Assembly (NCBI GenBank): GCA_041658625.1 | Contig: JBAZZW010000002.1 | Location: forward strand, 538,851 to 602,850 | Direction: 5' to 3' | From: Actinomycetota bacterium | GTDB lineage: Bacteria; Actinomycetota; JAHEXW01 | Length of the DNA stretch: 64,000 nucleotides | Part shown: positions 4,592 to 60,159 of the stretch, piece by piece | Position numbering within the stretch: position 1 is the stretch's first letter | How the letters are laid out: every line of letters starts with the position of its first letter | Program-made: the position numbers and the translations under genes | The notes under the pieces: generated by a model | Told to the model about the DNA's origin: nothing | The model's database searches: none | What the model saw: only the letters and a program-made list of their open reading frames with translations

Positions 4592-4610
4592 TTTACGTCC
4601 ATGATTTTAC

Positions 4611-4634
4611 GGACACATTCCCGGGAATGTGTCC
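4611..4634. promoter_or_regulatory. 24-bp perfect palindrome GGACACATTCCCGGGAATGTGTCC (copy 1), between arsR-like gene and TadE-like gene
   Basis: Read directly; identical to copy 2 at 5041..5064; candidate operator or RNA hairpin. Confidence 0.5.
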
Positions 4635-4639
4635 GTCGA

Positions 4640-5038
4640 CTAATGGAGATATTTCCTAAAGAGACTGCTAAGGTTGCCTAGCATCACGTCCGTGACCACC
4701 CGACTGTCTTTGTCTTCTATTTCTCTGTTAAAGGAGTGTATTACAAGAAATAGCAGCATTTCATTCCTTAACGACAATCTGACCTTGCGAACTCTATAAT
4801 AGATAAACGATCCCCTGTTTCTATAGGTAACAAATCCGGCTTTGTTCAGGTCGCTTAGATTCCGCGAAACTGTTTTAACAGGCCACCCGCCCCGAATGCT
4901 GATTTCACCAACAGTTAGCGGTCCTGTATTGTTGAGCATTTCAAGTATCTCCAAACGTTTTCTGAAGCCAAGGACTTTGAAAATATTCGCCAAATCATCA
5001 AGTTCGTTCTTCTTTGTCATTTTCTCCTTTGCAAACAT
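4640..5038 (-). CDS. ArsR/SmtB-family transcriptional regulator
   Basis: 132 aa; winged-HTH LEILEMLNNTGPLTVGEISIRGGWPVKTVSRNLSDLNKAGFV; alternative start at ATG 5020 with AGGAG RBS. Confidence 0.8.
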   Translation of the reverse strand: MFAKEKMTKKNELDDLANIFKVLGFRKRLEILEMLNNTGPLTVGEISIRGGWPVKTVSRNLSDLNKAGFVTYRNRGSFIYYRVRKVRLSLRNEMLLFLVIHSFNREIEDKDSRVVTDVMLGNLSSLFRKYLH

Positions 5039-5040
5039 CA

Positions 5041-5064
5041 GGACACATTCCCGGGAATGTGTCC
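5041..5064. promoter_or_regulatory. 24-bp perfect palindrome GGACACATTCCCGGGAATGTGTCC (copy 2), immediately upstream of arsR-like gene
   Basis: Read directly; exact duplicate of 4611..4634. Confidence 0.5.
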
Positions 5065-5070
5065 TTACTT

Positions 5071-5835
5071 TTAAAAACTTACACTTCCGGTGTCTTGGAG
5101 AGAACGTGCAAAAGGCAGTTCGGGGGCCTTCTGCCCGGTTTCATTTATGTTTACGCCACGGAATGAGTTAATCGGGATTTCAAAATAAACAGTTGCCGTT
5201 GAGCCGTCTATCGCGGTGATTTGGACATAGTGCGTGCCTTGACCGCCGAAATCATATTCGCCCCTGGCTGTTATGTTGTTTGATAGTTGCGGATCCGTGA
5301 ATTGTCCAGTCGCCAGCGTAACCGTGTAATGCGATCCGTTTCGATCCTGCCGCCCGACAACAGCGTACACTCGATAAGACTGGATTGGTTTGTTTGCGGA
5401 GAACGCGATATTTAGGTCTAGGTGGGCCGGTTCGTCATTTTGACTCTGCCGGCGCCCGTCTTCTGTTAAATAATGCCAGCGGGTAAAAACATACGGTGGC
5501 GACTTTGCCACAGAAACCGTCACCTGCAACGGTTCTGCCCAATACCCGCTGGCCGCCCACTCTTGATAGGTCTGCCAATATCCGCTTGCAACCCAGGTTG
5601 AATATGGCGCCCAAGCCCAGTAGCTTGTGTCCACCCACGTCCAGTAGCTCTTATCGTGCCATTGCCACCAAGCCCCGACCCAGCCGGCACCAGGGCAATA
5701 CACGTCGCTTCGATGCTTATGATACCCCCATGCATAAGCGAAATACATCGGCCCCCAATTCATGCCAATTAGGGAGTCATCCTGAGGAGCAGAAGAGATG
5801 ACTGGCGACGAGGGAACTCTCACGATTCTACTCAT
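5071..5835 (-). CDS. hypothetical protein with Trp/Tyr-rich repeats (SYW/GYW every ~8 residues) and a C-terminal beta-rich domain
   Basis: 254-aa longest ORF in the region; unusual composition; no family recognised. Confidence 0.4.
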   Translation of the reverse strand: MSRIVRVPSSPVISSAPQDDSLIGMNWGPMYFAYAWGYHKHRSDVYCPGAGWVGAWWQWHDKSYWTWVDTSYWAWAPYSTWVASGYWQTYQEWAASGYWAEPLQVTVSVAKSPPYVFTRWHYLTEDGRRQSQNDEPAHLDLNIAFSANKPIQSYRVYAVVGRQDRNGSHYTVTLATGQFTDPQLSNNITARGEYDFGGQGTHYVQITAIDGSTATVYFEIPINSFRGVNINETGQKAPELPFARSLQDTGSVSF

Positions 5836-6200
5836 TCAGCCACAATCGTGCCTTGAGAATCGCTGGACAGTGAGGCAATCGCTTATAGAATCATCCGAAT
5901 GCTTGCCGACAAGTTTAATCCGATGTTGGCTCCCCGGGTTGTATGTTTTTCGCACATTCCGAGCTTGCATAAGACAAACCGAGGTCGTCTTCGACGCATC
6001 TACGAAAAAGCATATCCTTAAAAATGCCAATTGCTGCTTCGTCAAAATACACGTTTTCACACCTTCTGCCCGATGCTGGGCAAGGAGGCAATAAAGAACT
6101 TGGACGCATTGATAAAAGAGAATAGCGAGAAATGCCTGGACGTTGCCTCATAGTAATTGGCTGCAAAATCGACAAACAGAACTTACATAATAATGCGAGG

Positions 6201-8945
6201 CTACTTGGGCGGTTTAGCTGCTTTCAGTCGTTGTACGGCCCACTCGTTTGAAAGATCAAGCGATTGGTTTAGCTCGAACGAGGTGTCAGCTCGTTTCTTC
6301 TCAGCATTTCGAACTTCTTTGACGGAATCGTAGAACTGTTTGCCAATCAGACGTTGTTTCTCAATTGGAATTACCGGTACTGGTATTGCTCCAAGATCAT
6401 CCCATTCAACGCGGTGTCTACTAATACCTGTGGATTGAGATAAAAGGCGGGCTCGGACTTCGGGGCTTCGAAGAAATCCCCATAAAAACCAAACATCGAA
6501 TCTTGCGTCCTTAAGTCGCATAATAGTAAACTCCGACGAGGCAATTACACCCGAGAGGTCAGCAGGAATCACGGCAATGGAACCGAGGGCAGCAGCAATG
6601 TTGCTTGCTACAATATCATTTTCTTTTGGGTTTTGAACTTTACTATATGTAAGTTCTTCTCCGAGCGCCTTATCGCCTTCCTCGGGGATTCCGTCATATC
6701 GAACACGCAGTAATGTGTTTAGTTTGCTAGGCTCGTTTTTCGGATTGAAGCCCTCATTTTCAATCTTGTCGACTATTGTGTGTAGGGGAACAACATTAAG
6801 GCCATCGGCACGCCATTTGTCAGAAATGTCATTTGGGCGGGGGAGACACGACTTAACATCAAGACGATCTCCAATAAGGCCGCTCCTGACCCGCCAAGGG
6901 CCCTTTATCCCCTGCATAAAAAGATTAAAAGCCTCAAAAAGGTCCCTAGTTTCGTCTTCAGCTGCGGTACGAGCTTCAGCTGCTTTACTAGGCCGTGTCT
7001 TCATGGGCACATCATCAAGGCCTACGTAGCGACATTCATACATAAAGGCATCCGGCTGACTTTGCTTTTTCGCGTCCCGCCGAATGAGGTATAGGACCGA
7101 TGTCTTTGCACGAGCTCCAACACGTTGAAATGCGTCCCCAGGGATACTGATTACGGCACGAACTATAAAGCGATCCCTTATAAAATCTCGTGCGAAACGA
7201 TTATTTGAGGAACTCAAGATTGAGTCGTCAATTACAGTTACGAGTTTACCGCCTGGCTTAAGAATGTCTGCATATCGTTCTAAGAACATAATGCTCGACT
7301 TTAATGATGGGCGTTGTCTATTTGTTTTCCCAAAGCCAAAGGTCCTTAGAGCGTACTGGTTGAGAATTAAAGCCTCGTCTGGCAGCGTCTCTGAGTAATC
7401 CATCGAGAATGGTGGATTTGTTAGAACGATATCGAAACCTCGTCTGCTTCCATTTGATATTTCGAAAATAAGTTTCTGAAGCTCTTCGAGCTCAAAACGC
7501 GATTGCTGATCATCTCCGACACCATGAGACACTGTCTTATCAAGGCTGTCCGCCGCATATATCCGGCTACCGCCGTCTCCATGGAGATACATGTTGATTC
7601 GTGAAATCTTTGCTAATGGTGGTTCTTTACCTGCATCAATGCCAAATATGGAATCGTTGGCGACCCTTTCTAACAAGGCGTTTTGTTCGCTGTCGCTCAG
7701 AGAAGTGTTAGATCGAATTTGATTCCGCATGTCGGTGAGGGCTTCAATAAGGAAGCCTCCTGAACCACAACAGGCATCAATTACATGGTCAATATGGTCT
7801 TTTGATGCAATTGGGGCAGCGAGTTGTTCCATCATTTTTACAATAGACCTGGGTGTAAAGTATTGCCCCAAGGCTTGTCCCCGCATGGTGGCACTTAAGA
7901 ACGTCTCAAACAAACGACCGTTAAGGTCCTCATCAATGCTGTACAAATCAAGTGATTCTAGTTTCGAGACAACTTGTCTGATTGTTCCTATCTGGAGTTC
8001 AATATGGTCATTTGGCCCAAATATCGGTTTCTTCTTTCCTCGGGCAACGTCCTCTCTAAGAACTTCATTAAGCCTGGCAAAAAGGGTCTCATCAACTGGA
8101 TTCTTTACCCCCTGTGACTGCAGAGCATCAATCCAATGCGTTGAGAAGATAACATTGTCCCGTGGTATTGGTTTCTCGTCTCGTAGTAAAGGCCCCATTA
8201 TGGGGTCATCGTGTAGTTTTCGATCCTCCCAAAGCTTTACGAACATTATTTTTACGAACTCAAAGAAAGCAGGTTGAGGATTCATCTTCTCAGCTTTCCA
8301 TATAAGTCTATGACAGCTGTTAAAAACCCTTTTGATCTCCTCAACAGAAGGCTTTTTCATTAGAAAGCGTGGCTTTTGTATCGAAGGCTTCAGGCCTTGC
8401 CTAATAGTAGTAGCCTGAAGTAACGAGCGTACCGAAAAGAAGCTTATGTTGTCATCAGCAAAGTCGGAAAATTCCAGGCTGATTATAGGCTTGCTCTCAT
8501 CCCATTTATAAAGGTCAAATGCGAGACCATTAGTTATTACGTAGTATGAACAGGGGTTTTGATTGCTAAACTCTTGATTAAGCCCTAACGCATATCCAGC
8601 ACCTTGAAAAGCCCACTTGTCGATATCTTCCCCTGGTGATTTTGCATCGATTAGCCACATAGGCTTCTCGTTACAGTAGATGACGTAATCTGGCCTATAG
8701 CCTTCTTTTTTTCTGCCTCTGGCTACAACAATCTCTTTAAGAGATACCTTTGGCCGGATTTCAGAGTCTTTGTAGCCGAGATCCTTTAGCAAACGATTTA
8801 TAAAGAATGTCTCGACTGAAGACTCATCAACTAAAACCGCTTTATCACAGTATTTGTTTGACTTCGCGTCCTTGCCAGCGCGACTCAAAGAGTCTAGGAG
8901 CGTAGGGCGAAGTAGGTCACTTTGCGGGGTTTTTGACTGTTTCAT
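6201..8945 (-). CDS. single-chain restriction-modification enzyme: PD-(D/E)xK nuclease + gamma-class N6-adenine methyltransferase + HsdS-like target-recognition domain (Type IIG-like)
   Basis: 914 aa; N-terminal RPDYVIYCNE...WLIDAKSPGE nuclease core; MTase motif I VIDACCGSGGFL then motif IV NPPF; C-terminal IPVPVIPIEKQRLI typical of HsdS TRD ends. Confidence 0.75.
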   Translation of the reverse strand: MKQSKTPQSDLLRPTLLDSLSRAGKDAKSNKYCDKAVLVDESSVETFFINRLLKDLGYKDSEIRPKVSLKEIVVARGRKKEGYRPDYVIYCNEKPMWLIDAKSPGEDIDKWAFQGAGYALGLNQEFSNQNPCSYYVITNGLAFDLYKWDESKPIISLEFSDFADDNISFFSVRSLLQATTIRQGLKPSIQKPRFLMKKPSVEEIKRVFNSCHRLIWKAEKMNPQPAFFEFVKIMFVKLWEDRKLHDDPIMGPLLRDEKPIPRDNVIFSTHWIDALQSQGVKNPVDETLFARLNEVLREDVARGKKKPIFGPNDHIELQIGTIRQVVSKLESLDLYSIDEDLNGRLFETFLSATMRGQALGQYFTPRSIVKMMEQLAAPIASKDHIDHVIDACCGSGGFLIEALTDMRNQIRSNTSLSDSEQNALLERVANDSIFGIDAGKEPPLAKISRINMYLHGDGGSRIYAADSLDKTVSHGVGDDQQSRFELEELQKLIFEISNGSRRGFDIVLTNPPFSMDYSETLPDEALILNQYALRTFGFGKTNRQRPSLKSSIMFLERYADILKPGGKLVTVIDDSILSSSNNRFARDFIRDRFIVRAVISIPGDAFQRVGARAKTSVLYLIRRDAKKQSQPDAFMYECRYVGLDDVPMKTRPSKAAEARTAAEDETRDLFEAFNLFMQGIKGPWRVRSGLIGDRLDVKSCLPRPNDISDKWRADGLNVVPLHTIVDKIENEGFNPKNEPSKLNTLLRVRYDGIPEEGDKALGEELTYSKVQNPKENDIVASNIAAALGSIAVIPADLSGVIASSEFTIMRLKDARFDVWFLWGFLRSPEVRARLLSQSTGISRHRVEWDDLGAIPVPVIPIEKQRLIGKQFYDSVKEVRNAEKKRADTSFELNQSLDLSNEWAVQRLKAAKPPK

Positions 8946-9354
8946 GTGTTCATTATCATTTGACGGAAGAACTGCGTCAAGGTTCGGCCAAACACTGTCC
9001 TATATAGCGGTCAAGTGACAGACAACTAGACAACCCATTGCTAGGCGCATTGTTCATAGAAAAGGTCAGCCAAGTAAGTTATTTAATTTCTATCTAATAA
9101 GCCATGGCAAAACCTCATCACTCTTCGGTAATCATAGAGAATGTTCGAAGACGCTCCGGCGGCCGCTGTCGCGTCACTGTAAAGTGTCAACAGAAACGGG
9201 GGAACTCCAACTCCAGTTTGTTGTTTATTGTAGCCGAGTGGGCTACGAGTCTTCTTCAAAAGAATATTCCATATACATAGCGTTTCCTCAGCTCTTGAGG
9301 TTTAGCACTTGAAAGTACATAATGAACCTAATCTTGTCTACTGGGGAGTTAATT

Positions 9355-11817
9355 ATGCCTTTGAAGATTAAGCTTAAGAATCAGTTTCGTGAGCCCCTCA
9401 ATACGGATGCGGGTTTCGTCGGTCGTGAAGACGAATTGGCGCGACTCATTACGATATTTCAGCAGAGGCAAGCCGCAACAGTCCTAGTCGCTGGACATCG
9501 AGGGGTAGGCAAGAGCGCACTGGTTGACGAGGCCTTAAAACGCTCGCAAGCCGACAAGAAAAAGCGCGTAGTTGCTCGATTGACGTTGCCCCATCTATCG
9601 CCCGGTAGTTCGGATATTCGAGATCAAATACTTCAATCGCTGGCGCGCTCGCTATATTTCTCTATCAAAGACGACAATAGCGTTCCAAAACCTCTTCGCG
9701 AAGTCAGCAAGGTTCTATATGATAAGACCTATTTGAAGGAACTACACGAGCAGACTGGGGTCGAGTCATTATTCGAAACCGAAGCTAAAGCCCGATCAGC
9801 GACAAAGACAAAGACTTCAATCGCTTTTGGCAAGATAGTTTCACTTATTGTCGGAACGTCGCTCTCTGGTGTGGTTGCTATCGGAGGAATCGCGGTTATT
9901 TCGAGAATCGTTACGGATCATGGCCTGAGTTGGGGAATAGTGGCTAGCGCTGTCGTGTTGGTTACGGTTGTGCTTTCAGCTTATCAACTTAATCTCGAAA
10001 AAGAGGATGAGAATACGACTATTGACAAGGCAACGGCTTCTAACAAGATAAACCGAATCGGTCTTTACGACGTATCTCCCGAGACCCTTGAATTTGAGCT
10101 TCGCGATCTTATAAAGGAGCTTGCAGCTAAAGGTCATCCTTGTGTCTTCGTGATTGACGAACTTGATAAGCTAGAGGCTTTTCCCAAAGGCGTTCAGCAG
10201 GACCCTGAAAGCGCTGGGCAGGATTTTAAAAAACACATCATATTCAGGATTTTGTCCAGTTTGAAAAACTTCTTTACATTGGGTTCTGGAATATTTGTGT
10301 TTATTTCAGGGGAAGATTTCTACGCCCAACTAAATGGACCCATTGAAACAGACATCTATTCGTTAGCTCATACCTTGTTCACTGATCAGGTTTTTGTTCA
10401 GGTTCTCTACTATCAGGACGTGGAGCGCTTGATTGAGCAGATTATTGCCGAAACGCCTGCGGACGAGGAGGAGTACCATCGCTTCAGGAACTATTTGTGT
10501 TGGCGCTCTCGAAATCATGTGTTTGATCTCTTATCACTCATCGGGGAATTTGTCAGATTTGATAATCGAGGCCAGCCATTTCTTTGGGGAGAGAAATCAG
10601 GAGCTCAGGACGGGCATTGGCATGAAGGCAATCTACCGACGAACTGGGAAGTTGCTGCTGCTCTGCAGAAAATAGTGGGGGCCGCTTATGATGAATCGGC
10701 GAGGCCGTCTGCTGGAGAGCAGCGTTTCAATCAAGCATTGTGGCTTACCCAACTGCGAACGGCCTATGATCTGTTCGCTGATATGCCCGTGAAGGTGCCA
10801 GAGGCTGGTTTTGAGTTGCCTGCTGCTTATGCCTGGGTAAAGAATCTAACGCCAAACGATCTTGATGACCTTGCTGGCGCAGTCGAGCGTCTGCTGGCTA
10901 AACTTGAGAGGTATGGTGCGGTAAGAGTAGTCTCGGAGACACTCACTCCCGAGACAGAAGGCCAGCCCGATGTCTCTGTGACTAGCTATACACTAGTTGA
11001 AAACCCACCTTATCCGCCCACGTCAGTCAACTCTGAAGTACAAAGAATCCCACTTGAGGATTATTATCTCGATATCGGGGCGAAAGCGGAGCACCTCGCA
11101 AAGAATCTATCCGTCTTGGGCATTGAGACACCGCAGTTATCCGATGAAATCAACGCTGTCGTCGATCTAATACTCGCAGTCAAGAACATTTCGCCACGAA
11201 ACACAGTACCGAGAAGCAGGGTCAAAGAAGGAATTAAACGAGCAGACGTTCTTGCCGAACAGATGGTCGAGACCGGCGTTAATGCAGTTATTACAAAATG
11301 GGCGGCGGATCACGGGATGCAGCTTAGTCAGGCACTTTCAGAAATTGAAAACAAAACTGGCACGCCCTGGCAAGACTCGCTTACCAGTGAGTTCCCAGAG
11401 TTTGTTGAGGCTTTGGACATAAGCGAGGTTGAATACTTCATCATCGGAGGTTCAACTTCCGAGAACCAGGTTTTAGTGCTGAATAATCGACGAGATCGTG
11501 ATTTGACGGCAGTAAGCGAGGCTTATTCAAAATCCTTGCCTGGTGAAAAGGGTCGCGATAGACGGAAACAACGTCTTCCGATAGTTGTAGTGAGCCAGTT
11601 GTCTCCCGGCAAAAATCCTCAGATTCCACGCGAAGTCGTTGAGGTTATCCAAGAAACCGAAGGTTGGTCTTTCTTCTCTGCCGTACTTGGACTTTTACCG
11701 AAAACGAAGAGAGTCAAAACGAATCTGGCAGGATGGACTGTCTTTTCTCTCGATCCTAGCTTGGATAATTTGGAAGACCTACCAGCTGAACTAGAAACGG
11801 TCTCATACATTACATAG
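9355..11817 (+). CDS. KAP-family-like P-loop NTPase with two TM helices inserted between Walker A and Walker B; ~550-aa uncharacterised C-terminal region
   Basis: Walker A VLVAGHRGVGKSAL (about 9484-9510), two hydrophobic helices (about 9814-9997), Walker B CVFVIDELDKLE (about 10135-10170). Start taken at ATG 9355 (GGGGAG RBS) rather than track start 9322. Confidence 0.65.
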   Translation: MPLKIKLKNQFREPLNTDAGFVGREDELARLITIFQQRQAATVLVAGHRGVGKSALVDEALKRSQADKKKRVVARLTLPHLSPGSSDIRDQILQSLARSLYFSIKDDNSVPKPLREVSKVLYDKTYLKELHEQTGVESLFETEAKARSATKTKTSIAFGKIVSLIVGTSLSGVVAIGGIAVISRIVTDHGLSWGIVASAVVLVTVVLSAYQLNLEKEDENTTIDKATASNKINRIGLYDVSPETLEFELRDLIKELAAKGHPCVFVIDELDKLEAFPKGVQQDPESAGQDFKKHIIFRILSSLKNFFTLGSGIFVFISGEDFYAQLNGPIETDIYSLAHTLFTDQVFVQVLYYQDVERLIEQIIAETPADEEEYHRFRNYLCWRSRNHVFDLLSLIGEFVRFDNRGQPFLWGEKSGAQDGHWHEGNLPTNWEVAAALQKIVGAAYDESARPSAGEQRFNQALWLTQLRTAYDLFADMPVKVPEAGFELPAAYAWVKNLTPNDLDDLAGAVERLLAKLERYGAVRVVSETLTPETEGQPDVSVTSYTLVENPPYPPTSVNSEVQRIPLEDYYLDIGAKAEHLAKNLSVLGIETPQLSDEINAVVDLILAVKNISPRNTVPRSRVKEGIKRADVLAEQMVETGVNAVITKWAADHGMQLSQALSEIENKTGTPWQDSLTSEFPEFVEALDISEVEYFIIGGSTSENQVLVLNNRRDRDLTAVSEAYSKSLPGEKGRDRRKQRLPIVVVSQLSPGKNPQIPREVVEVIQETEGWSFFSAVLGLLPKTKRVKTNLAGWTVFSLDPSLDNLEDLPAELETVSYIT

Positions 11818-11994
11818 CTATGTTGCCTAGCATTCTTACAACAGATTTCGAAACAGCAATGAAAACTATCGAGTGCATCTAATGTTCATCGAATAAGTCA
11901 CCGCAAAACTCCGCTACTCCTCGTTAATCACAGAGTACTCTCTTTAAAGACAATCCGCAGACAAGGACAGCCATCGGGTGATATAGTAATACAT

Positions 11995-12059
11995 TGTTGG
12001 TTGCGCTGGAGGGACTACGAATCCGTAGGTTGGAGGTTCGGCTCCTCTCGGGCGCGCCA
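11995..12059 (+). other. tRNA-like 3' fragment (T-arm-like GGAGG-TTCGGCT-CCTCT, acceptor-like CGGGCGC, G, CCA); no matching 5' acceptor strand
   Basis: Read directly; antisense ORF 11924..12130 translates to the RSRTSNLRIRSP-type peptide typical of tRNA-derived DNA. Possible degenerate tRNA or integration-site remnant. Confidence 0.25.
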
Positions 12060-12161
12060 CATCTCACCTGGGCAACAGATGATGATTTCTTTAATTGACA
12101 AGGTATTATCTGGGGCAATCTAATACTCATCTAATATTGATTGTCGCCGACAAGGAAGGCA

Positions 12162-13028
12162 ATGATATACAAAGGCTTGTACTCTCAGCGCAAGAAAATA
12201 AACCCTGATGAAGATGTTTTTTCATATTCGCTCCCTGCCCCAGTAAGAGCTGCAATATTTAATATTATTAAAAACACCAATCCGAATTGGTCATCTCACG
12301 GCAAAACCCGAAGGCCTTTAAAGGCCATTGTTAAGGATTTTTGTGAAAATCATTTATTTCACGGGATTACACCAAGAGCAGAAGACGCTTTTGCATCTGG
12401 GTACCAATACGCCGACCACCAACTTACCGATGACCTTAAGGCATGGATCCAAACGACTCCACAAGAATCTTTGTTTGATTTTATTGAAGTAGCAATTATT
12501 AATATGAGCGAGTCTAATTTAACGACGCTTGTTAAAGATATTAATGATTTGTTTCAAAGGGAAATGATTGGATTTGAGATTGTAAACGGAAACATTATTG
12601 ACAAGTCTGATGAATTCCTTCATCAAGAAGTTGTTCTGCAGCCAATTCTTGGGCTAAAAGCAGGAGGATTTGAAAAAGCCGAACAAGACTTCATGAAGGC
12701 ATTGCAGGAATATGCCCACAAAGATTATGCGGGAGCCCTTACAAGTGCTAATACTGCGCAGGAAAGCGTTATGAAGAGGATTCTTGGAGTCGAAAAAGGT
12801 GTGTCAAGTGATTTGGTTAAGACATTAGTTGAAAGGGGCATAATCCCTTCATATATGCAGAATAAAATGTTACTGCCCGTTTCGATAAGAAACAAAGATA
12901 GCGACGCACACGGCAGGCTTGATCCAATTGACGTCACGCCGGAACTAGCTCAATACGCGATTCATTGTGTCGGGGCTAATGTTGTGTTCTTGCTCAAAGT
13001 TACGAATATGGACGGCACCCAACAATAG
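12162..13028 (+). CDS. hypothetical protein with C-terminal HEPN-like Rx6H motif (candidate abortive-infection/RNase-type effector)
   Basis: ATG 12162 preceded by AAGGAAGG RBS (track start 12141 is TTG); C-terminal SIRNKDSDAHGRLD fits the HEPN Rx4-6H motif; AT-rich gene. Confidence 0.45.
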   Translation: MIYKGLYSQRKKINPDEDVFSYSLPAPVRAAIFNIIKNTNPNWSSHGKTRRPLKAIVKDFCENHLFHGITPRAEDAFASGYQYADHQLTDDLKAWIQTTPQESLFDFIEVAIINMSESNLTTLVKDINDLFQREMIGFEIVNGNIIDKSDEFLHQEVVLQPILGLKAGGFEKAEQDFMKALQEYAHKDYAGALTSANTAQESVMKRILGVEKGVSSDLVKTLVERGIIPSYMQNKMLLPVSIRNKDSDAHGRLDPIDVTPELAQYAIHCVGANVVFLLKVTNMDGTQQ

Positions 13029-13070
13029 CTGTTTATCGGTTTTGGGTTTCTCGTTTTTAGGAATAATTGC

Positions 13071-13118
13071 AACCAGACTCATAATCCGCGGCAAGTTCGA
13101 GTCCTGCTGTGTTCCCCA
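13071..13118 (+). other. second tRNA-like 3' fragment (CTCATAA loop-like segment, T-loop TTCGAGT, terminal CCCA); no 5' acceptor strand
   Basis: Read directly; GGCAAGTTCGAGTCCTGC resembles a T-arm; lies just downstream of the HEPN-motif gene. Confidence 0.25.
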
Positions 13119-13192
13119 AACAGGAGCTAATAAAAAGGCCGACTCCAATAAACAGACGTCTCTTCTCCTATTAGTTCATGTTTATCGCCTTG

Positions 13193-13591
13193 CTATTTCA
13201 AAGATCGCGCCCTTTGCGAGGCGACATATTCTTCTAGGTCGCTTTTCTGTACTCTCCACGACCCCGCTCCAGCGCCAATCCTGAAGCCTAGCAAGAGCTT
13301 CTTGTTTAGCATGTCGTAGACCTGCGCCTCAGAGAACCGCAACAGCTTGGCGACCTCGCTGACTGTCAGCAAACGATTAGGGTCAGCCATCTTGGCGGCT
13401 TCTTTTTCCGCCGCCTTTTCGTGATACTTTCTGGCGTCCTCGGCGTTAATGAACTTACGCCGGCCGAAGCGAGTGGTCCGGAATTCCCCGCGGCGCATCA
13501 TCTTGCGAACCGTGTTCGGCTCCATTTGTAAAATCTCCGCAACTTCCTCAACACTTATATATCCCGTTTTGTTAGACATATTCATGACCAC
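13193..13591 (-). CDS. DNA-binding protein with two tandem excisionase-type HTH domains
   Basis: 132 aa; YISVEEVAEILQMEPNTVRKMMRRGEF and LLTVSEVAKLLRFSEAQVYDMLNKK are both HTH_17-like. Confidence 0.6.
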   Translation of the reverse strand: MVMNMSNKTGYISVEEVAEILQMEPNTVRKMMRRGEFRTTRFGRRKFINAEDARKYHEKAAEKEAAKMADPNRLLTVSEVAKLLRFSEAQVYDMLNKKLLLGFRIGAGAGSWRVQKSDLEEYVASQRARSLK

Positions 13592-13650
13592 TTTCGTTTG
13601 CTTCAGTCTTCCGTTATCTTCATATATATCAACAATATATCATATTTCAT

Positions 13651-53955: not shown

Positions 53956-56172
53956 ATGCCAAAAGTCAGTATAGTCATAACGTGTCATAACCATGGACGG
54001 TTTTTACCATTTGCGATAAAGAGCGCGATCTCGCAGACATATAAGGACTTTGAAGTTATTGCCGTGGATGATGGGTCCACCGACAATACAGCCGCTGTTT
54101 TAGTGAAATATGAAAACGACCCGCGATTCACAATAATACACCAGGAAAGAAAAGGACCTGCGTCGGCTCGTAACCTCGCCATTGAGCAGGCAAACGGCGA
54201 TTTCATCCTGCCCCTGGACGCAGACGATATTATAGAAAAGAACATGCTCGAAGAAACCGTGCCGGTTCTGGAGAAGAATCCAGATCTTGGTGTTGCATAC
54301 ACCCAATGGAAGACTTTTGGCGATGTCATCAAATTGGTTTTGCCAATCGAGTACAACTTTTTGGTCCTCGCCTATCATGCCAACTTCATTCCCGGGTGCT
54401 CGCTTTATCGTAAACAAGCCTGGAAAGAAGCTGGCGGATACAACACTGATATGGAATATGGAGGTGAGGCCTGGGATCTATTTGTCAGAATGGGCGAAAA
54501 AGGTTGGTGTGGTGGGTTAGTGTCTAAGACACTATTAATGACTAGAATCCATTCAGAATCAATGCAGGGTTTATCTGACAAGCATAAACAAGACATAATC
54601 AACCAGGTTGTCGCGAATAACAAAGACGTATACTCAAAGAATGTCGAAGCGAAAGACTGGTTTGAGGCAAAGCAACTAGCCCGTGAAAACAGATATCCAT
54701 TTTCTGATGTACCAATACCCGAGCTTAACGATGTATTAATAAAAAACTTGGCTTGGCCGAAACCTGCGAGTGCTCCAAAGGTCAGCATTATTATCCCCTG
54801 TTATAACCAGGCCGACCTGCTTGATGAGGCAGTTAATAGCGCTCTATGCCAAACCTATCAGTCGTTTGAGATCGTGATCGTCAATGACGGCTCAACGGAT
54901 AACATTGGTGAAGCGCTAAAGAAACATGCAAATAATCCAAAAATACATATCATCAACCAGGAGAATCAAGGAGTGGCAAGTGCAAGAAACAATGCAATTC
55001 TGACAGCTGGGGGCGAGTATATTTTGCCTCTTGATGCCGACGATATGATTGAACCTACATACCTCGAAAAGACAGTTGCCTCCCTCGACGCAGAAGAAAA
55101 AGCTGGAATTGCGTATACATACATTAAGTTCTTTGGCAACGCAGAAAGAGAAATACAACAAATTGACTTTGATTTCATGGTTCTGGCCTATCATGGTAAT
55201 TTTATGACATGCACATCTTTGTTTAGAAAGACAGCCTGGGAAGATGCGGGTGGCTATAACCCAAACATGAGGTATGGATATGAAGATTGGGATCTATGGC
55301 TTGGAATTTCCGAACGGGGTTGGGGTGTTACATTTGTGAAGGAACCACTGATCCACTATCGCCAGACTGAAACATCCAGGTCTGATGAAGCACACAGACA
55401 TCTCCCTGAGCTATACCGCCAGCTGATTGCGAATCACCCTATCACGTACGCTCAACCTCTTGCCGAGAAGAAATGGCTACGCTTTGTGAAACAGGTTAGT
55501 GATGAGACGCGTTTTCCTATCGGAAATGCGACATCTCCATGTTTTCAGACCTATATAGATAACATCATTTTTGAACCAGTCGACAAGCCGGATGTAAGCG
55601 TCATCATCACTTGCGATCACCGTGCCAATACAATTATGGAGAGTGTCAGGAGCATCCTTTTCCAGGATTACCGCAGCTTCGAGATAATAATCGTTGATCT
55701 AGGAATAGCTGGAGACGCTAAGGGTGAGCTTGAAAAGCTAAAAGCAAATCCACGTGTTGCGATCATTGATGCGACTTTTTCGAGAGACTTGATATCATCT
55801 ACCAGCAAAGCAGTTTCAGGAGCGCGAGGTAAGTATATATTGATGCTGAGTAATGGTGATGTAGTACACAAAACATTGCTTAGTAAAGCAACGCGAGAGT
55901 TCAATAAAAGAACCAAACTAGGCATTGTCTATGCGAATGAACAAGAACGCAATGGAGAAGAGGCTGCAAGAAAAATCCAGTATAGCTACGCTGCCCTAAA
56001 GCGCCAAAATTATATTGGGCGACACGCAGTTTTTAGCAAGCATGCCTGGCTGGAAGCGGGCGGCTTTAAGAAGGAGACTCTGAATCCTGACATTCTATGG
56101 GGCCTATGGCTAAGAATGGGCGACCTTGGCTGGGCGGGGAAATTGATTGATGAACCCCTGGTGCTTCAATAA
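53956..56172 (+). CDS. multi-domain family 2 glycosyltransferase (three tandem GT-A domains)
   Basis: Start at ATG 53956 (MPKVSIVITCHNHGRFL), downstream of the terminator; GT2 signatures at SIVITCHN...VIAVDDGSTD, SIIIPCYN...IVIVNDGSTD and SVIITCDH...IIIVDLG. Confidence 0.8.
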   Translation: MPKVSIVITCHNHGRFLPFAIKSAISQTYKDFEVIAVDDGSTDNTAAVLVKYENDPRFTIIHQERKGPASARNLAIEQANGDFILPLDADDIIEKNMLEETVPVLEKNPDLGVAYTQWKTFGDVIKLVLPIEYNFLVLAYHANFIPGCSLYRKQAWKEAGGYNTDMEYGGEAWDLFVRMGEKGWCGGLVSKTLLMTRIHSESMQGLSDKHKQDIINQVVANNKDVYSKNVEAKDWFEAKQLARENRYPFSDVPIPELNDVLIKNLAWPKPASAPKVSIIIPCYNQADLLDEAVNSALCQTYQSFEIVIVNDGSTDNIGEALKKHANNPKIHIINQENQGVASARNNAILTAGGEYILPLDADDMIEPTYLEKTVASLDAEEKAGIAYTYIKFFGNAEREIQQIDFDFMVLAYHGNFMTCTSLFRKTAWEDAGGYNPNMRYGYEDWDLWLGISERGWGVTFVKEPLIHYRQTETSRSDEAHRHLPELYRQLIANHPITYAQPLAEKKWLRFVKQVSDETRFPIGNATSPCFQTYIDNIIFEPVDKPDVSVIITCDHRANTIMESVRSILFQDYRSFEIIIVDLGIAGDAKGELEKLKANPRVAIIDATFSRDLISSTSKAVSGARGKYILMLSNGDVVHKTLLSKATREFNKRTKLGIVYANEQERNGEEAARKIQYSYAALKRQNYIGRHAVFSKHAWLEAGGFKKETLNPDILWGLWLRMGDLGWAGKLIDEPLVLQ

Positions 56173-56175
56173 CTA

Positions 56176-56838
56176 TTACTTTCGTACTTTTCGTGCAACA
56201 ATGCAGGCTACAGCTTGGACATAGCCATTTGAAACAGAATCAATATCGAGCAAGTCTGTTTTTGTTGCCGGAATCCAGTGGAGCCTTTCTAGGCCTTTAA
56301 AATACTTTTCTTTTTCTATTGTGAATCCATCAAGCAACGATACCAGCGCTTCATCGTCATATACTCTATACCAACTTGATTGCATCCTTCTCCCAAACGG
56401 GATAGTCAGAATGAACATACCATCGTTTGTTAAAACTCGGCTTATCTCTTGAACTACCTTAAAGTCACCATTGCTAAGAGGCTCTTCTCCATAGGCGCCA
56501 AGTCCGCAGTGCTCAATTGCTGAAACTGCACTTACAACGTCGAAAGAACCGCTTTGAAAGGAGTCTTTCAGAAAATCGCCTTTTACGAATTCGAAGTTTG
56601 GATGCTTAAGATCGTAATCTGTTAAGTCAACTCCTACTACTCTATGCCCCAGACTTGCTAGTTCAATAGGAAGTCGGCTTCTAGCGCAACCAAAGTCAAG
56701 AATCCGCAATTCCTGATTGCTCGGAATATTTTGAAAAACGAATGGAATCTCGACAATTCTTTCATTTGTAAGAAGTTGATCTGAAGGACCATCGTAATAT
56801 ATTGACTCTTCAAAAAGGGATTTTAGGTCTTTATCCAT
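56176..56838 (-). CDS. class I SAM-dependent methyltransferase
   Basis: 220 aa; motif I ILDFGCARSRLPIELASLGHRVVGVD. Confidence 0.75.
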   Translation of the reverse strand: MDKDLKSLFEESIYYDGPSDQLLTNERIVEIPFVFQNIPSNQELRILDFGCARSRLPIELASLGHRVVGVDLTDYDLKHPNFEFVKGDFLKDSFQSGSFDVVSAVSAIEHCGLGAYGEEPLSNGDFKVVQEISRVLTNDGMFILTIPFGRRMQSSWYRVYDDEALVSLLDGFTIEKEKYFKGLERLHWIPATKTDLLDIDSVSNGYVQAVACIVARKVRK

Positions 56839-56958
56839 GCTCCAAACTTAATATAGCAAACAGTGGCTGTCAACATAGCTTGTAAGAAATGTTACTTTTA
56901 TGGATAATTGAAAGTAATTTCATGTCAGCGCGTTGATCTCTTTATTTGGGTATGTTCA

Positions 56959-59355
56959 ATGACGAGAAAAGGAAAAAAGAGGCTAAATCTTGGGTGTGGG
57001 CCGGATATCAGAGAGGGCTTTATAAATGTTGACGCACGGTCACTTCCCGGCGTCGATCTAGTTTCTGATGTAAGGAAGCTGCCTTTCCCTAAATCAAGTA
57101 TTTCGGAAATTGTCGCTATCGATGTACTTGAACATTTGTCTAGACTTGAAGCGCCTGAGGCGCTTAGATATTGGGTTTCACTTCTAACCAAAGAAGGATC
57201 GATCTTTGTTCAATCACCAGATATCCGATTGCTAGCAGAGGTTATTGAAGATGACGATGAGCTTTCGCGAAGACTATACGGGGATCAGGATTATCCCGAG
57301 AATCTCCATAAAAGTGGGTTCACTTTATCGCGTCTTAGGGAATTATTAGAAGCTGAAGGCTTGAAGATCGTAAAAGGAACTTATATTAATGGGAATTTTA
57401 GAATTTGGGCTACCTATCCACGCTCAAGAATAAAAAAATGTCTTTGTCTCGGCAAAACCGATCCATACCCATCAGGTCAGATTCCAGATGAAACGCTAAT
57501 AGTTGAAGGACTAAAAGATAATGGGATCGATGTTGATTTCTATGATTATAAAGATTTCGACCCAGAATTAACTGATATCTACGATTTTGCACTACTAATT
57601 TATCATTACGACATTCCTCTTCAAGGGTATCGTTATCTTCTGGATCAAGTCGTTGCTGACAAGACCGCACTAATGACATTTGACTGGGTTCTATCTGAGG
57701 CGAGAAGAACTGGGTTTCTAGAGGTGGCGAGACTCTTCGACATTGTTTTTACAACAGACGATGTTGTTGACTGGCGTTCCTTGGGAGTGAACCAGGCAAC
57801 AATTCGACAAGGAGTTAGTTCACCTCATAAGCGCGGTCACAAGAGAAACGATCTCGATTTTGATATAGCGTTCATCGGCGGCCTAAATGACTCAAGCAGG
57901 GTTGAAAACCTTAGAACGATTATGAAGAAATATAAGGTCGCTCATTTTGATAATCAGGTAAATCAAGAATTTAGTTCCATCTATATGGGGCCTGCTCACA
58001 ATGAAAGGTTCTGTGATATATGCAGTTCAGCAAAAATCATTCTGGGCGGCGGTTTCCCTGAAACTACGAAGGGTTACTGGTCAAATCGTGTTTACATGGT
58101 CCTTGGATGTGGGGGATTCTTCCTTTCGCCATATGTTGAAGGTATGGAGAGCGAATTTGAAGATAAAAAGCACCTGGTTTTTTTTCGCTCAGAATCTGAA
58201 CTAGAAAAGAATGTTCAGTACTATCTAAAGAATGATGCCGAAAGGGAAAACATAGCTAGAAACGGAAGAGCGCTTGTGCATCAAGAGTATTCATACAAAA
58301 AGCGAACTAGAAGTTTGGTTAAAGAGATAAACGAAATGCGGCGCAAAATCGGTCTTGTGTCATACACTGAACGACAAAGCGGATTAGGCATTATGGCAAA
58401 TGAGCTAGTTGACAGCTTGAATATAACAAACATCCTATCGATAGACTCTGCCAAGGGGAAACGAGAAACTTGGAGAGAAAACCAAGTTAATGCCAACAAT
58501 CCACCGGATCAAGAATCCATATTTGAGTTTTTGTCACAGAATTTTAAGGTCCTACTCTTGCTGGAGACGCCGTTTAATCAACATATTCCGTATGTGGCAA
58601 AAAAAGCAGGCAAAAAGGTAGTCTGCTATGTTCACCATGAGTGGTTGCCACTAGATGCACCGTGGCTGCAATACGTTGATCTATTCTTGTGTCCAAATAG
58701 TATTGCCGAAGAGAAAATGAATAGTTATGTAAGAAAACAAGTCAATTGGCCAATCAATCTTTCCCAATATGAGTTTAAAAAAAGAGAGGGTCATGTCTTT
58801 ATACATAATGCTGGATATATTGGACCCTTTAATAGAAAAGGAACAGCTGATGTAATACAAGCTTTCTGTGCATCAAAGGCAGGAAAGCTGATTCTAAGAA
58901 GCCAAATCCCTCTAGAACAAGAGATTGATTTGGATCTTGTAAAAATGGCAAGAGATGATAGTCGTATAGATATCAGAATTGGCGCGCTTGATAACTATCA
59001 GGACTTGTTTAGCGAAGGTGACATTGCGTTACAGCCTAGCCGTTTTGAAGGATATGGGAGAGCAATAGCTGAGGCTATGGCTTCAGGCTTGGTAGTTGTA
59101 ACAACAGATGCTCCACCCATGAAGGACTTTGTCGGAGATTCTAAGCTTCTAGTCAAAGTGTCTTCAGAACAACCATTAAGATCCGGCCCATTTGACGCTA
59201 TATCATATGTACCAGACATAGATTCGATGACAGAGATAATTGATTCTTTGTCAAGATCAAGTGATATTGGAAAGTTTAGTCTCGAGGCCAGAGAGAGAAT
59301 TGAGTCAGGATATAGCCGGTGGGACAAAATAATTGAAATACTACAAAATGTCTAG
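56959..59355 (+). CDS. fusion protein: N-terminal SAM-dependent methyltransferase + central and C-terminal glycosyltransferase (GT1/GT4-like) domains
   Basis: Start at ATG 56959 (MTRKGKKRLNLGCGPD); MTase motif LNLGCGPD...AIDVLEHL; C-terminal EGYGRAIAEAMASGLVVVTTD typical of GT4. Confidence 0.7.
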   Translation: MTRKGKKRLNLGCGPDIREGFINVDARSLPGVDLVSDVRKLPFPKSSISEIVAIDVLEHLSRLEAPEALRYWVSLLTKEGSIFVQSPDIRLLAEVIEDDDELSRRLYGDQDYPENLHKSGFTLSRLRELLEAEGLKIVKGTYINGNFRIWATYPRSRIKKCLCLGKTDPYPSGQIPDETLIVEGLKDNGIDVDFYDYKDFDPELTDIYDFALLIYHYDIPLQGYRYLLDQVVADKTALMTFDWVLSEARRTGFLEVARLFDIVFTTDDVVDWRSLGVNQATIRQGVSSPHKRGHKRNDLDFDIAFIGGLNDSSRVENLRTIMKKYKVAHFDNQVNQEFSSIYMGPAHNERFCDICSSAKIILGGGFPETTKGYWSNRVYMVLGCGGFFLSPYVEGMESEFEDKKHLVFFRSESELEKNVQYYLKNDAERENIARNGRALVHQEYSYKKRTRSLVKEINEMRRKIGLVSYTERQSGLGIMANELVDSLNITNILSIDSAKGKRETWRENQVNANNPPDQESIFEFLSQNFKVLLLLETPFNQHIPYVAKKAGKKVVCYVHHEWLPLDAPWLQYVDLFLCPNSIAEEKMNSYVRKQVNWPINLSQYEFKKREGHVFIHNAGYIGPFNRKGTADVIQAFCASKAGKLILRSQIPLEQEIDLDLVKMARDDSRIDIRIGALDNYQDLFSEGDIALQPSRFEGYGRAIAEAMASGLVVVTTDAPPMKDFVGDSKLLVKVSSEQPLRSGPFDAISYVPDIDSMTEIIDSLSRSSDIGKFSLEARERIESGYSRWDKIIEILQNV

Positions 59356-59392
59356 AAACTCACCGGTATTTAAAAGCCAAGTTCTCTTGTTG

Positions 59393-59402
59393 CCCCCCCC
59401 CC
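59393..59402. repeat. homopolymeric C10 tract about 40 bp upstream of the hicB -10 box (TATAAT at 59441..59446)
   Basis: Read directly; a second tract C8T8 at 59889..59904 follows hicA. Confidence 0.6.
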
Positions 59403-59453
59403 GTTCTCTGATTTTGGTGTTCTTATCTGCTGTCTTCTGATATAATAACGACT

Positions 59454-59675
59454 ATGAAGAGCACATTTACTGCTGTTTTCGAGAAAACGGACGATTGGTA
59501 TATCGGCTATGTCGAAGAACTTCCTGGTGCCAACTCACAGGGAAAAACTCTTAACGAGGCGCGCGAAAACCTAAAGGAAGCTATAGAGCTTACCCTCAAA
59601 TCTAACCGCGAGATTGCCGAACGCGGCCTAACGGGCAAAAAGGTAATCAGGGAATCCATTCAGATAGCCGTCTAA
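59454..59675 (+). CDS. hicB: HicB-family antitoxin
   Basis: 73 aa; FEKTDDWYIGYVEELPGANSQGKTLNEARENLKEAIEL resembles HicB/UPF0150; -10 box only 7 nt upstream of ATG (leaderless-like). Confidence 0.65.
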   Translation: MKSTFTAVFEKTDDWYIGYVEELPGANSQGKTLNEARENLKEAIELTLKSNREIAERGLTGKKVIRESIQIAV

Positions 59676-59864
59676 ATGAAAAGGCGCGCTCTGCTAGCCC
59701 ATCTTAAGAAGCACAACTGCGTCCTGTTAAGACAAGGCGCACGTCATTCTGTGTTCATCAACACCGCGAACAATAAAGTCTCGACCGTCCCCCGACATTC
59801 TGAGATTGTCGATCTTCTTGCTAAGAAGATTTGTCGCGACCTCGAAATCCCCGCCCCTCTATAA
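59676..59864 (+). CDS. hicA: HicA-family toxin (mRNA interferase)
   Basis: 62 aa; LKKHNCVLLRQGARHSVFIN...HSEIVDLLAKKICRDL fits HicA/YcfA-like fold; start abuts hicB stop. Confidence 0.7.
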   Translation: MKRRALLAHLKKHNCVLLRQGARHSVFINTANNKVSTVPRHSEIVDLLAKKICRDLEIPAPL

Positions 59865-59988
59865 AAACATACCCTCTCCACTCAAGAACCCCCCCCTTTT
59901 TTTTGAGCTCGCAAAATATTCTTCGAGCGAGCGCTAATTACGAGCTTGCCCTGAGCTAGTCGAAGGGTCGAGAAGGGAGGGCGCCGCT

Positions 59989-60159
59989 CGCTGGACAAAC
60001 CCGGCTATGCTCTTTAATATTGTTTAAGTGCGAATACGGGTGATTAGCTCAGGGGGGAGAGCGCTTCCCCTGACACGAAACTCGTGTACCATGCCCAAGC
60101 CCCATCTCATCTGCAGGTATAACACTCTTTTGGAATCCGCCGTCGCTATGTAAGTGCAC
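59989..60159 (+). repeat. ~170-bp direct repeat, copy 1 (contains tRNA D-arm-like TAGCTCAGGGGGGAGAGCGC)
   Basis: Aligned by eye with copy 2 at 62542..62710; high identity over most of its length with a few indels. Confidence 0.6.

Follow-up and report, generated by a model that had tools for sequence, protein, structure and literature searches.

What does the large ATPase encoded on the plus strand at 9355-11817 of a 64,000-nucleotide stretch from an Actinomycetota bacterium (assembly GCA_041658625.1, contig JBAZZW010000002.1, positions 538,851 to 602,850 of the forward strand; the whole stretch is called the window here) do for the cell that carries it? Its open reading frame (ORF) is intact, and the identical 820-residue database entry (MFA5867817.1, from a 611-kb contig) is annotated 'MAG: AAA family ATPase [Actinomycetota bacterium]', MAG standing for metagenome-assembled genome. 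The answer we think most likely, with some reserve and on comparative grounds, is that it is a stand-alone, membrane-anchored KAP-type P-loop nucleoside triphosphatase (NTPase) that by itself protects the cell against phages or other mobile elements. The parts of the gene on which the argument turns are as follows.

9355..11817, plus strand: complete KAP-type P-loop NTPase gene with an internal hydrophobic hairpin, 820 residues, MFA5867817.1 (ORF and translation)
9415..10548, plus strand: ATPase module, residues 21-398 including the insertion, an AAA+/STAND-like alpha/beta core with helical lid (Foldseek, AlphaFold, distant-relative profile)
9493..9516, plus strand: Walker A motif or P-loop, GHRGVGKS, residues 47-54 (read from the sequence)
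9835..9984, plus strand: hydrophobic helical hairpin, residues about 161-210, between helix alpha2 and the Walker B strand, a predicted membrane anchor (Kyte-Doolittle, conservation, AlphaFold)
10144..10170, plus strand: Walker B motif VFVIDELDK, residues 264-272, of the hhhhD[DE]LD[KR] type, with Glu269 as the predicted catalytic glutamate (read from the sequence)
10549..11814, plus strand: C-terminal 422-residue region, helical bundles followed by a small alpha/beta domain at residues about 691-820 (AlphaFold model)

Residue numbers refer to the 820-residue protein counted from the ATG at 9355. Translation from another ATG in the same frame, at 9322, would lengthen the protein by 11 residues. 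The start at 9355 is likely the better one, because a Shine-Dalgarno sequence (GGGGAG) lies 7 nt upstream of it, the N-termini of homologues align from its first residue and the database entry likewise has 820 residues.

The ATPase core and its internal hairpin

The Walker motifs of the window protein are separated by about 210-215 residues. A preliminary description, made from the sequence, had put GHRGVGKS and VFVIDELD about 200 residues apart with two hydrophobic helices between them, and this arrangement holds, the distance from residues 47-54 to 264-272 being about 210 residues. Counts for the close family refer throughout to 34 aligned homologues, and those for the distant set to 60 relatives at about 20% identity. 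The Walker A motif fits the pattern GxxGxGK[ST]. Five of its residues (G47, R49, G50, G52 and K53) are invariant across the close family, G52 and K53 also across the distant set, and the Walker B residues F265, D268, E269, L270, D271 and K272 are invariant in the family alignment. With K53 and the D268-E269 pair invariant, the core is predicted to be a hydrolysis-competent, switch-type ATPase.

An AlphaFold2 model built with the family alignment as input has a mean predicted local distance difference test score (pLDDT) of 81.7 and a predicted template modelling score of 0.72. About 20 residues precede the ATPase module, whose elements follow one another as strand b1, the P-loop, helix a1, b2, a2, a long helix, the low-confidence hairpin, two helices, b3 (which carries Walker B), b4, b5 and the helical lid. 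Against the PDB, Foldseek matched the full model to Cdc6/Orc1 (2qby, 5.6e-4), ORC4, TnsC, CED-4, RdrA and MuB. These hits put the model among the AAA+/STAND-like ATPases, where KAP NTPases also belong.

Kyte-Doolittle hydropathy over a 19-residue window peaks at 2.22 in both hydrophobic stretches (residues about 161-183 and 190-210). A pair of such segments occupies the same position in all 34 close homologues, where Kyte-Doolittle values over 19 residues are at least 1.6-2.8 in every protein while the sequence of the segments itself drifts; hydrophobicity kept in this way is as expected of lipid-facing helices and not of a packed protein core. Of the 60 distant relatives, 51 have at least one hydrophobic segment between Walker A and Walker B, as do most of the others when failures of the motif regular expression are taken into account. 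In the AlphaFold2 model the hairpin consists of helices 173-189 and 191-208, placed outside the alpha/beta core in a region of low pLDDT, so that in the model it does not belong to the sheet but is inserted directly ahead of the Walker B strand. The possibility that the segments were core strands, entertained in the preliminary description, thus gives way to helices in an insertion. The loop of about 10 residues between the helices contains 0.65 Lys plus Arg on average, and the 20-residue flanks contain 3.2 and 3.8; charged flanks around a short uncharged loop fit an in-in topology, which would place the ATPase and the C-terminal module both in the cytoplasm. Across the close family the hairpin is 22% Ala and 18% Gly, with small-xxx-small-xxx-small patterns in 32 of the 34 members. 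Sequence and model together make it probable that the hairpin spans the membrane.

The same segments could instead be peripheral, re-entrant or an oligomerisation interface, in which case the protein would be an essentially soluble STAND/AAA_16-type ATPase. This would agree with their Ala/Gly-rich composition, with the low pLDDT of the region, with AAA_16 as the best Pfam match, and with a simple position-independent Hessa calculation, which gives insertion free energies (dG) of +0.6 and +0.9 kcal/mol for the two window segments, borderline for insertion. In many homologues the second helix scores worse, the median Hessa dG being +1.95 in the close family and +5.2 in the distant set. A soluble hairpin nevertheless sits poorly with hydrophobicity that every close homologue retains despite sequence drift, and with charged flanks and a short uncharged loop that suit a hairpin with both ends inside the cell. 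The insertion also lies at the same position in KAP NTPases and in the defence NTPase Tmn, and Tmn is experimentally membrane-embedded (PMC13001434). We consider a hairpin that does not span the membrane very unlikely.

The best Pfam match of the window protein is the generic AAA_16 (1.3e-13). KAP_NTPase (PF07693) is matched at 22.3 bits against a curated cut-off of 20 (E 8.9e-5; residues 28-274, profile positions 8-164), so the KAP membership proposed in the preliminary description stands, if only just. Both alignments span the insertion. Many KAP NTPases, though not all, have two or four transmembrane helices inserted in the NTPase domain. KAP_NTPase matches 24 of the 34 close homologues (best 6.4e-10) and 51 of the 60 distant relatives (best 1.1e-13). 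In four of ten distant relatives that were scanned more closely KAP_NTPase scores highest of all families, at 40-50 bits and in a single unbroken alignment through the insertion; AAA_16 is usually limited to the P-loop end. Sub-threshold Pfam matches to nSTAND1, nSTAND6 and NACHT occur in the window ATPase or its close family. On sequence, then, the KAP assignment is supported for the superfamily and marginal for the window protein alone. Neither PADLOC nor NCBIfam has a name for the family, which is new but has an architecture already known from KAP NTPases and Tmn. Identity with DS-41 from DefensePredictor was rejected, since DS41_1 scores far below its cut-off (17.5 bits against 370).

The C-terminal module and the spread of the family

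Behind the lid lies a region that the preliminary description had put at 550 residues. It is shorter, about 420 residues, the larger figure having included the rest of the ATPase core and the lid. The remark that it has no recognisable motif stands: residues 399-820 match no Pfam family, no PDB sequence and, by Foldseek, no PDB fold, and they contain no repeats. The structure prediction suggested for it nonetheless gave a confident model (pLDDT 89). Its invariant residues are mostly Trp, Pro and Gly, together with the polar Q438, K439, D446, R450, N459, E518, R519, E568 and R737, among which we recognise no catalytic constellation.

The region is not a shuffled domain: its profile aligned to the distant relatives (59 sequences, query excluded) with a probability of 96.8% (E 2.3e-10) over 276 columns, residues about 402-722. 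The last 100 or so residues are not common to the distant relatives. By sequence, the module, about 320 residues of which are conserved even at about 20% identity, appears to define the family and not to have been swapped in, and the architecture of about 750 residues to be one conserved unit.

Close full-length homologues are rare, at about 40 in a database of 5.8 billion clusters (34-55% identity, about 810-890 residues). A profile search of 1.84 billion representative proteins returned 2,699 clusters at E<=1e-3, 1,180 at E<=1e-10 and 198 at E<=1e-30; the roughly 1,180 clusters at E<=1e-10 come from Actinomycetota, Chloroflexota, Bacteroidota, Bacillota and Patescibacteria. Most of the superfamily members listed have about 740-800 residues and share profile positions of about 20-410.

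A few superfamily members (alignment A4; for example proteins of 890-1,146 residues) carry additional C-terminal WD40, TPR, pentapeptide-repeat or LuxR-type helix-turn-helix (HTH) domains, and in some lineages, it seems, sensor or output modules like those of STAND proteins were joined to the same transmembrane-ATPase core. In an Acidimicrobiales MAG, at 10001-10225 of locus L020 in the middle of a 634-kb contig, there is a match to residues 3-79 only, at 48% identity. It may be a truncated gene remnant; KAP genes tend to decay, and such a remnant would fit.

Genomic surroundings and what they argue for

Seven independent contexts of the close family were available, and all seven are defence or mobile-element contexts. 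In locus L001 the homologue directly follows a Type III mod-res pair and GmrSD on the same strand, and in L002 and L003 it comes after Type I hsdM-S-R and YgjP. In L004 and L005 it lies between hsdM and hsdS-hsdR, accompanied by toxin-antitoxin genes (PhdYeFM, VapBC), and three more Acidimicrobiia genomes (L010, L011 and L013) have the same hsdS-hsdR arrangement. These five Acidimicrobiia loci are syntenic and share flanking genes (a UvrA flank), and were counted as one event. The homologue adjoins a reverse transcriptase and a NACHT protein in L006, an integrase and a TrwC relaxase in L007, and a Type I restriction-modification (R-M) system with an integrase in L008. No neighbouring gene is conserved across the contexts of the close family, which argues for a self-contained protein. 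The sporadic distribution and the residence in defence islands also speak against the housekeeping assignment that the preliminary description had left room for.

At 1640-10454 of L001, mod, res and the genes for a GmrSD-family enzyme and for the transmembrane ATPase overlap or stand 4-16 nt apart on one strand, which points to a joint transcript of three defence modules. In the five Acidimicrobiia loci, from sponge-associated and other Acidimicrobiia MAGs, the hsd genes seem to enclose a slot for cargo that is conserved in several species.

The frequency of R-M genes among these neighbours raises a different possibility, namely that the ATPase is held inactive by, or monitors, an adjacent R-M system and fires through its membrane output when a phage anti-restriction protein disables that system. 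PrrC guards EcoprrI in a comparable manner, with an anticodon nuclease as its output. In five of the seven independent contexts the gene adjoins an R-M locus or lies within one: it diverges from a Type IIG gene in the window, comes after Type III in L001 and after hsdM-S-R in L002 and L003, and is inside Type I in L004, L005 and their relatives. Tmn, moreover, synergises with PrrC and other ATP-sensing systems (10.1101/2022.08.21.504612). The type of R-M system, however, varies from locus to locus (IIG, III, I), L006 and L007 have no adjacent R-M, and the five Acidimicrobiia cases reduce to one evolutionary event. Adjacency by chance is also to be expected, as no genes are more frequent in defence islands than those of R-M, and Type I loci are known hot-spots of insertion. 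We regard a guard function as distinctly improbable.

A role outside immunity would be a membrane-tethered signalling or assembly NTPase that regulates a membrane complex, or one concerned with maintenance or exclusion of mobile elements. Roles of this kind were originally proposed in general terms for KAP NTPases. The resemblance of the core to the initiator and switch ATPases Cdc6/Orc1, TnsC, MuB and CED-4 would suit it, as would the heterogeneous contexts of the wider superfamily, the LuxR, pentapeptide-repeat, WD40 or TPR C-termini of some distant members and a C-terminal region without an enzymatic motif. On the other side stand the sporadic occurrence of some 40 close homologues in 5.8 billion clusters, the low-GC island described below, the consistency with which close-family contexts are defensive or mobile, and the lack of any conserved partner or operon that could be regulated. 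We judge this alternative unlikely, if somewhat less so than the guard.

Several results weigh against the defence reading itself. The defence context is plain for the close family, but no clear defence signal emerged for the wider superfamily when 142 neighbour ORFs from 20 loci were scanned together with Pfam and PADLOC: apart from a single recurring Type I R-M locus there were few defence genes. The distant relatives P0097 and P0074 lie on contigs too short to show a context. Neither phages (tblastn) nor a scan of viral contigs yielded relatives, and the one plasmid relative is a distant protein of 774 residues on Priestia pFDU301C. The window ATPase has no significant PADLOC defence model, its sole match being to PDC-S27 (7.4e-5) over 44 N-terminal residues, and the PADLOC tmn models match neither the window ATPase (E<=0.01) nor any of the 60 distant relatives (E<=1e-3), which among them hit ten PADLOC families. 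Comparison of alignments A1 and A4 by hhalign with one F-plasmid PifA sequence, a test of low sensitivity, gave probabilities of 3.8% and 8.0%, over the Walker A or Walker B stretch only. To these belong the borderline insertion energies and weaker second helix noted above, and a KAP score that for the window protein is marginal and below that of AAA_16.

In the window the gene belongs to a stretch of about 9 kb (about 4600-13600) with a guanine-plus-cytosine (GC) fraction of 0.44-0.47 (0.45 for the island), against 0.55 in the flanks. The order within this island is an ArsR-type HTH gene, a 254-residue ORF, a Type IIG-like R-M gene, the ATPase, an AbiJ_NTD4/DUF7014 gene and an HTH_17 excisionase-like gene, and the flanks are pilMNO on one side and Memo/dprA/comM on the other. 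Three features next to the ATPase bear on its surroundings.

6201..8945, minus strand: nuclease-methyltransferase-specificity fusion of 914 residues, Type IIG-like R-M, MAD2-like (Pfam, PADLOC)
8946..9354, no strand: divergent intergenic region of 409 bp between the R-M gene and the ATPase gene
12162..13028, plus strand: AbiJ-like protein of 288 residues with AbiJ_NTD4, DUF7014 and a sub-threshold Abi_C (Pfam, PADLOC; the database entry starts at 12162)

The R-M gene matches N6_Mtase and Eco57I in Pfam, with HSDR_N_2 just below threshold (24.1 bits against a cut-off of 25), and in PADLOC MTase_II (2.6e-49), REase_MTase_IIG and Specificity_I, the last a Type I-like specificity. It also resembles the MADS methyltransferase MAD2 (NCBIfam, 9e-54), far below the cut-off of that model. 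The gap that separates it from the ATPase had been given as 376 bp and described as a shared promoter region. The figure holds from the ATG at 9322 and becomes 409 bp from the start at 9355; the divergent geometry allows a shared promoter, but promoter-like matches on both strands of 8946..9354 are no commoner than in shuffled sequence.

The AbiJ-like gene, 344 bp downstream of the ATPase, corresponds to the PADLOC candidate PDC-S32 (1.3e-15), with NCBIfam STM4504/CBY_0614 below its cut-off, and from its sequence looks like an independent single-gene candidate for abortive infection. It was considered as a partner of the ATPase and set aside, being absent beside the homologues in L001-L008.

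Directly downstream of the R-M gene and on the same strand, the 254-residue ORF (5071-5835, minus strand) has no Pfam, PADLOC or NCBIfam match and could be another cargo gene of the island. A perfect 24-nt palindrome, GGACACATTCCCGGGAATGTGTCC, occurs twice, at 4611-4634 and 5041-5064, exactly around the ArsR/HTH_5 ORF (4640-5038, minus strand); the pair could be an operator pair, a terminator pair or the boundary of a small cassette. At its other end the island closes with the HTH_17 excisionase-like ORF at 13193-13591. No integrase was found among the island ORFs scanned, and no transfer RNA gene is present. A second low-GC stretch lies at about 54000-60000 (0.41-0.44 against about 0.55 elsewhere).

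A possible mechanism and comparison with known systems

How might such a protein defend a cell? In a defence role, the conserved C-terminal module, perhaps with the variable last 100 or so residues, could detect a phage-derived cue, and nucleotide binding or hydrolysis would then bring about oligomerisation or a conformational change. Clustered Gly/Ala-rich hairpins, runaway ATP turnover or both might collapse membrane or ion homeostasis, so that phage replication would be halted by abortive infection or a reversible arrest. Our confidence in this specific membrane or energy output is much lower than in the defence role. Tentatively, the family may be a third, unnamed lineage of membrane-inserted P-loop defence NTPases, distinct from Tmn/YobI and PifA and comprising about 1,180 clusters, with a Gly/Ala-rich (glycine-zipper-like) hairpin and a conserved cytosolic module of about 320 residues, in which the hairpins of an ATP-driven oligomer would form a gated leak for ions or solutes; as a whole this proposal is doubtful.

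Membrane-anchored P-loop NTPases are only now coming to be understood as phage defences, the mechanism of Tmn having been posted in 2026 and the KAP fusions in 2025, and the present family numbers more than 1,000 clusters in phyla poorly sampled for immunity (Actinomycetota MAGs, sponge-symbiont Acidimicrobiia, Chloroflexota and Patescibacteria). Should the defence role prove true, it would extend the principle of Tmn and PifA to a new lineage and provide, in a compact protein of 820 residues with a confidently modelled cytosolic module, a means of testing how sensing leads to the collapse of membrane or energy when an ATPase carries an internal membrane hairpin.

Of the known systems, the STAND/Avs NTPases (AAA_16, NACHT, NB-ARC) share with the window protein the best Pfam match, the Cdc6/ORC and CED-4 fold and the combination of a switch ATPase with a C-terminal module. 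The window protein departs from their three-part layout (N-terminal effector, NBD-HD-WHD centre, C-terminal repeat sensor) in having neither the effector nor the sensor, and differs from them also in a Walker B motif with a catalytic Glu and in the hydrophobic insertion within the core.

PifA, the F-plasmid protein that excludes T7 and the founding bacterial KAP NTPase, had been named in the preliminary description as the precedent. Like the window protein it is a KAP-type NTPase by Pfam and a single protein, in its case encoded on a mobile element, and its Walker B (VVMDDLDRLE, hhhhDDLDR) aligns with IDELDK here. Its Walker motifs are about 148 residues apart, compared with about 215 here, a difference that roughly equals the hairpin in length. 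Its reported effects when T7 infects, as cited in PMC13001434, are membrane leakage and membrane-associated abortive infection; transmembrane helices are absent from it (PMC13001434). Of the 60 distant relatives 12 weakly match the PADLOC PifA model, and the window ATPase does not. As a precedent PifA therefore survives in part: the Walker B type is shared, but the similarity is confined to the Walker motifs, the transmembrane helices are lacking and Tmn is closer.

Fusions of KAP NTPases to uncharacterised C-terminal regions, EF_KAP and metagenomic examples, defend Enterococcus as single ORFs, with Walker B required (PMC12632615). EF_KAP has two N-terminal transmembrane helices before the KAP domain and a 322-residue tail (PMC12632615). 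Like these fusions the window protein joins a KAP NTPase and, in its case, predicted transmembrane helices to a tail of several hundred residues without a known domain. Compared by description, EF_KAP differs in that its helices precede the KAP domain and in its hosts, gut bacteria of the Bacillota as against an Actinomycetota MAG.

Tmn was reportedly first described by Gao et al. in 2020. It has two transmembrane helices inside the P-loop domain, defends as a single gene and forms a decameric membrane complex; triggered by RIIB of phage T2, it raises ATP turnover, depletes ATP and exports Mg2+, with plasmolysis (PMC13001434). The present family was set apart from Tmn by PADLOC models and the published description, and YobI occurs neither in the full Pfam list of the close family nor among the top 25 families in the Pfam and NCBIfam lists for the distant relatives. 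The window protein is shorter, at 820 residues compared with about 1270 in the best-studied Tmn clades, and ends in a conserved, compact bundle and alpha/beta domain where Tmn has variable solenoid-like arms (PMC13001434). The likenesses reach further into the architecture. Both proteins place two hydrophobic helices between Walker A and Walker B at nearly the same spacing (K67-D276, about 209 residues, in Tmn and K53-D268, about 215, here; PMC13001434), and both have a Walker B of the D-L-D-R/K type. Like Tmn of the YobI family, the window ATPase is a single-gene unit without a conserved operon partner, resident in defence islands and with a long cytosolic remainder. Because PifA lacks transmembrane helices, Tmn is the better analogue.

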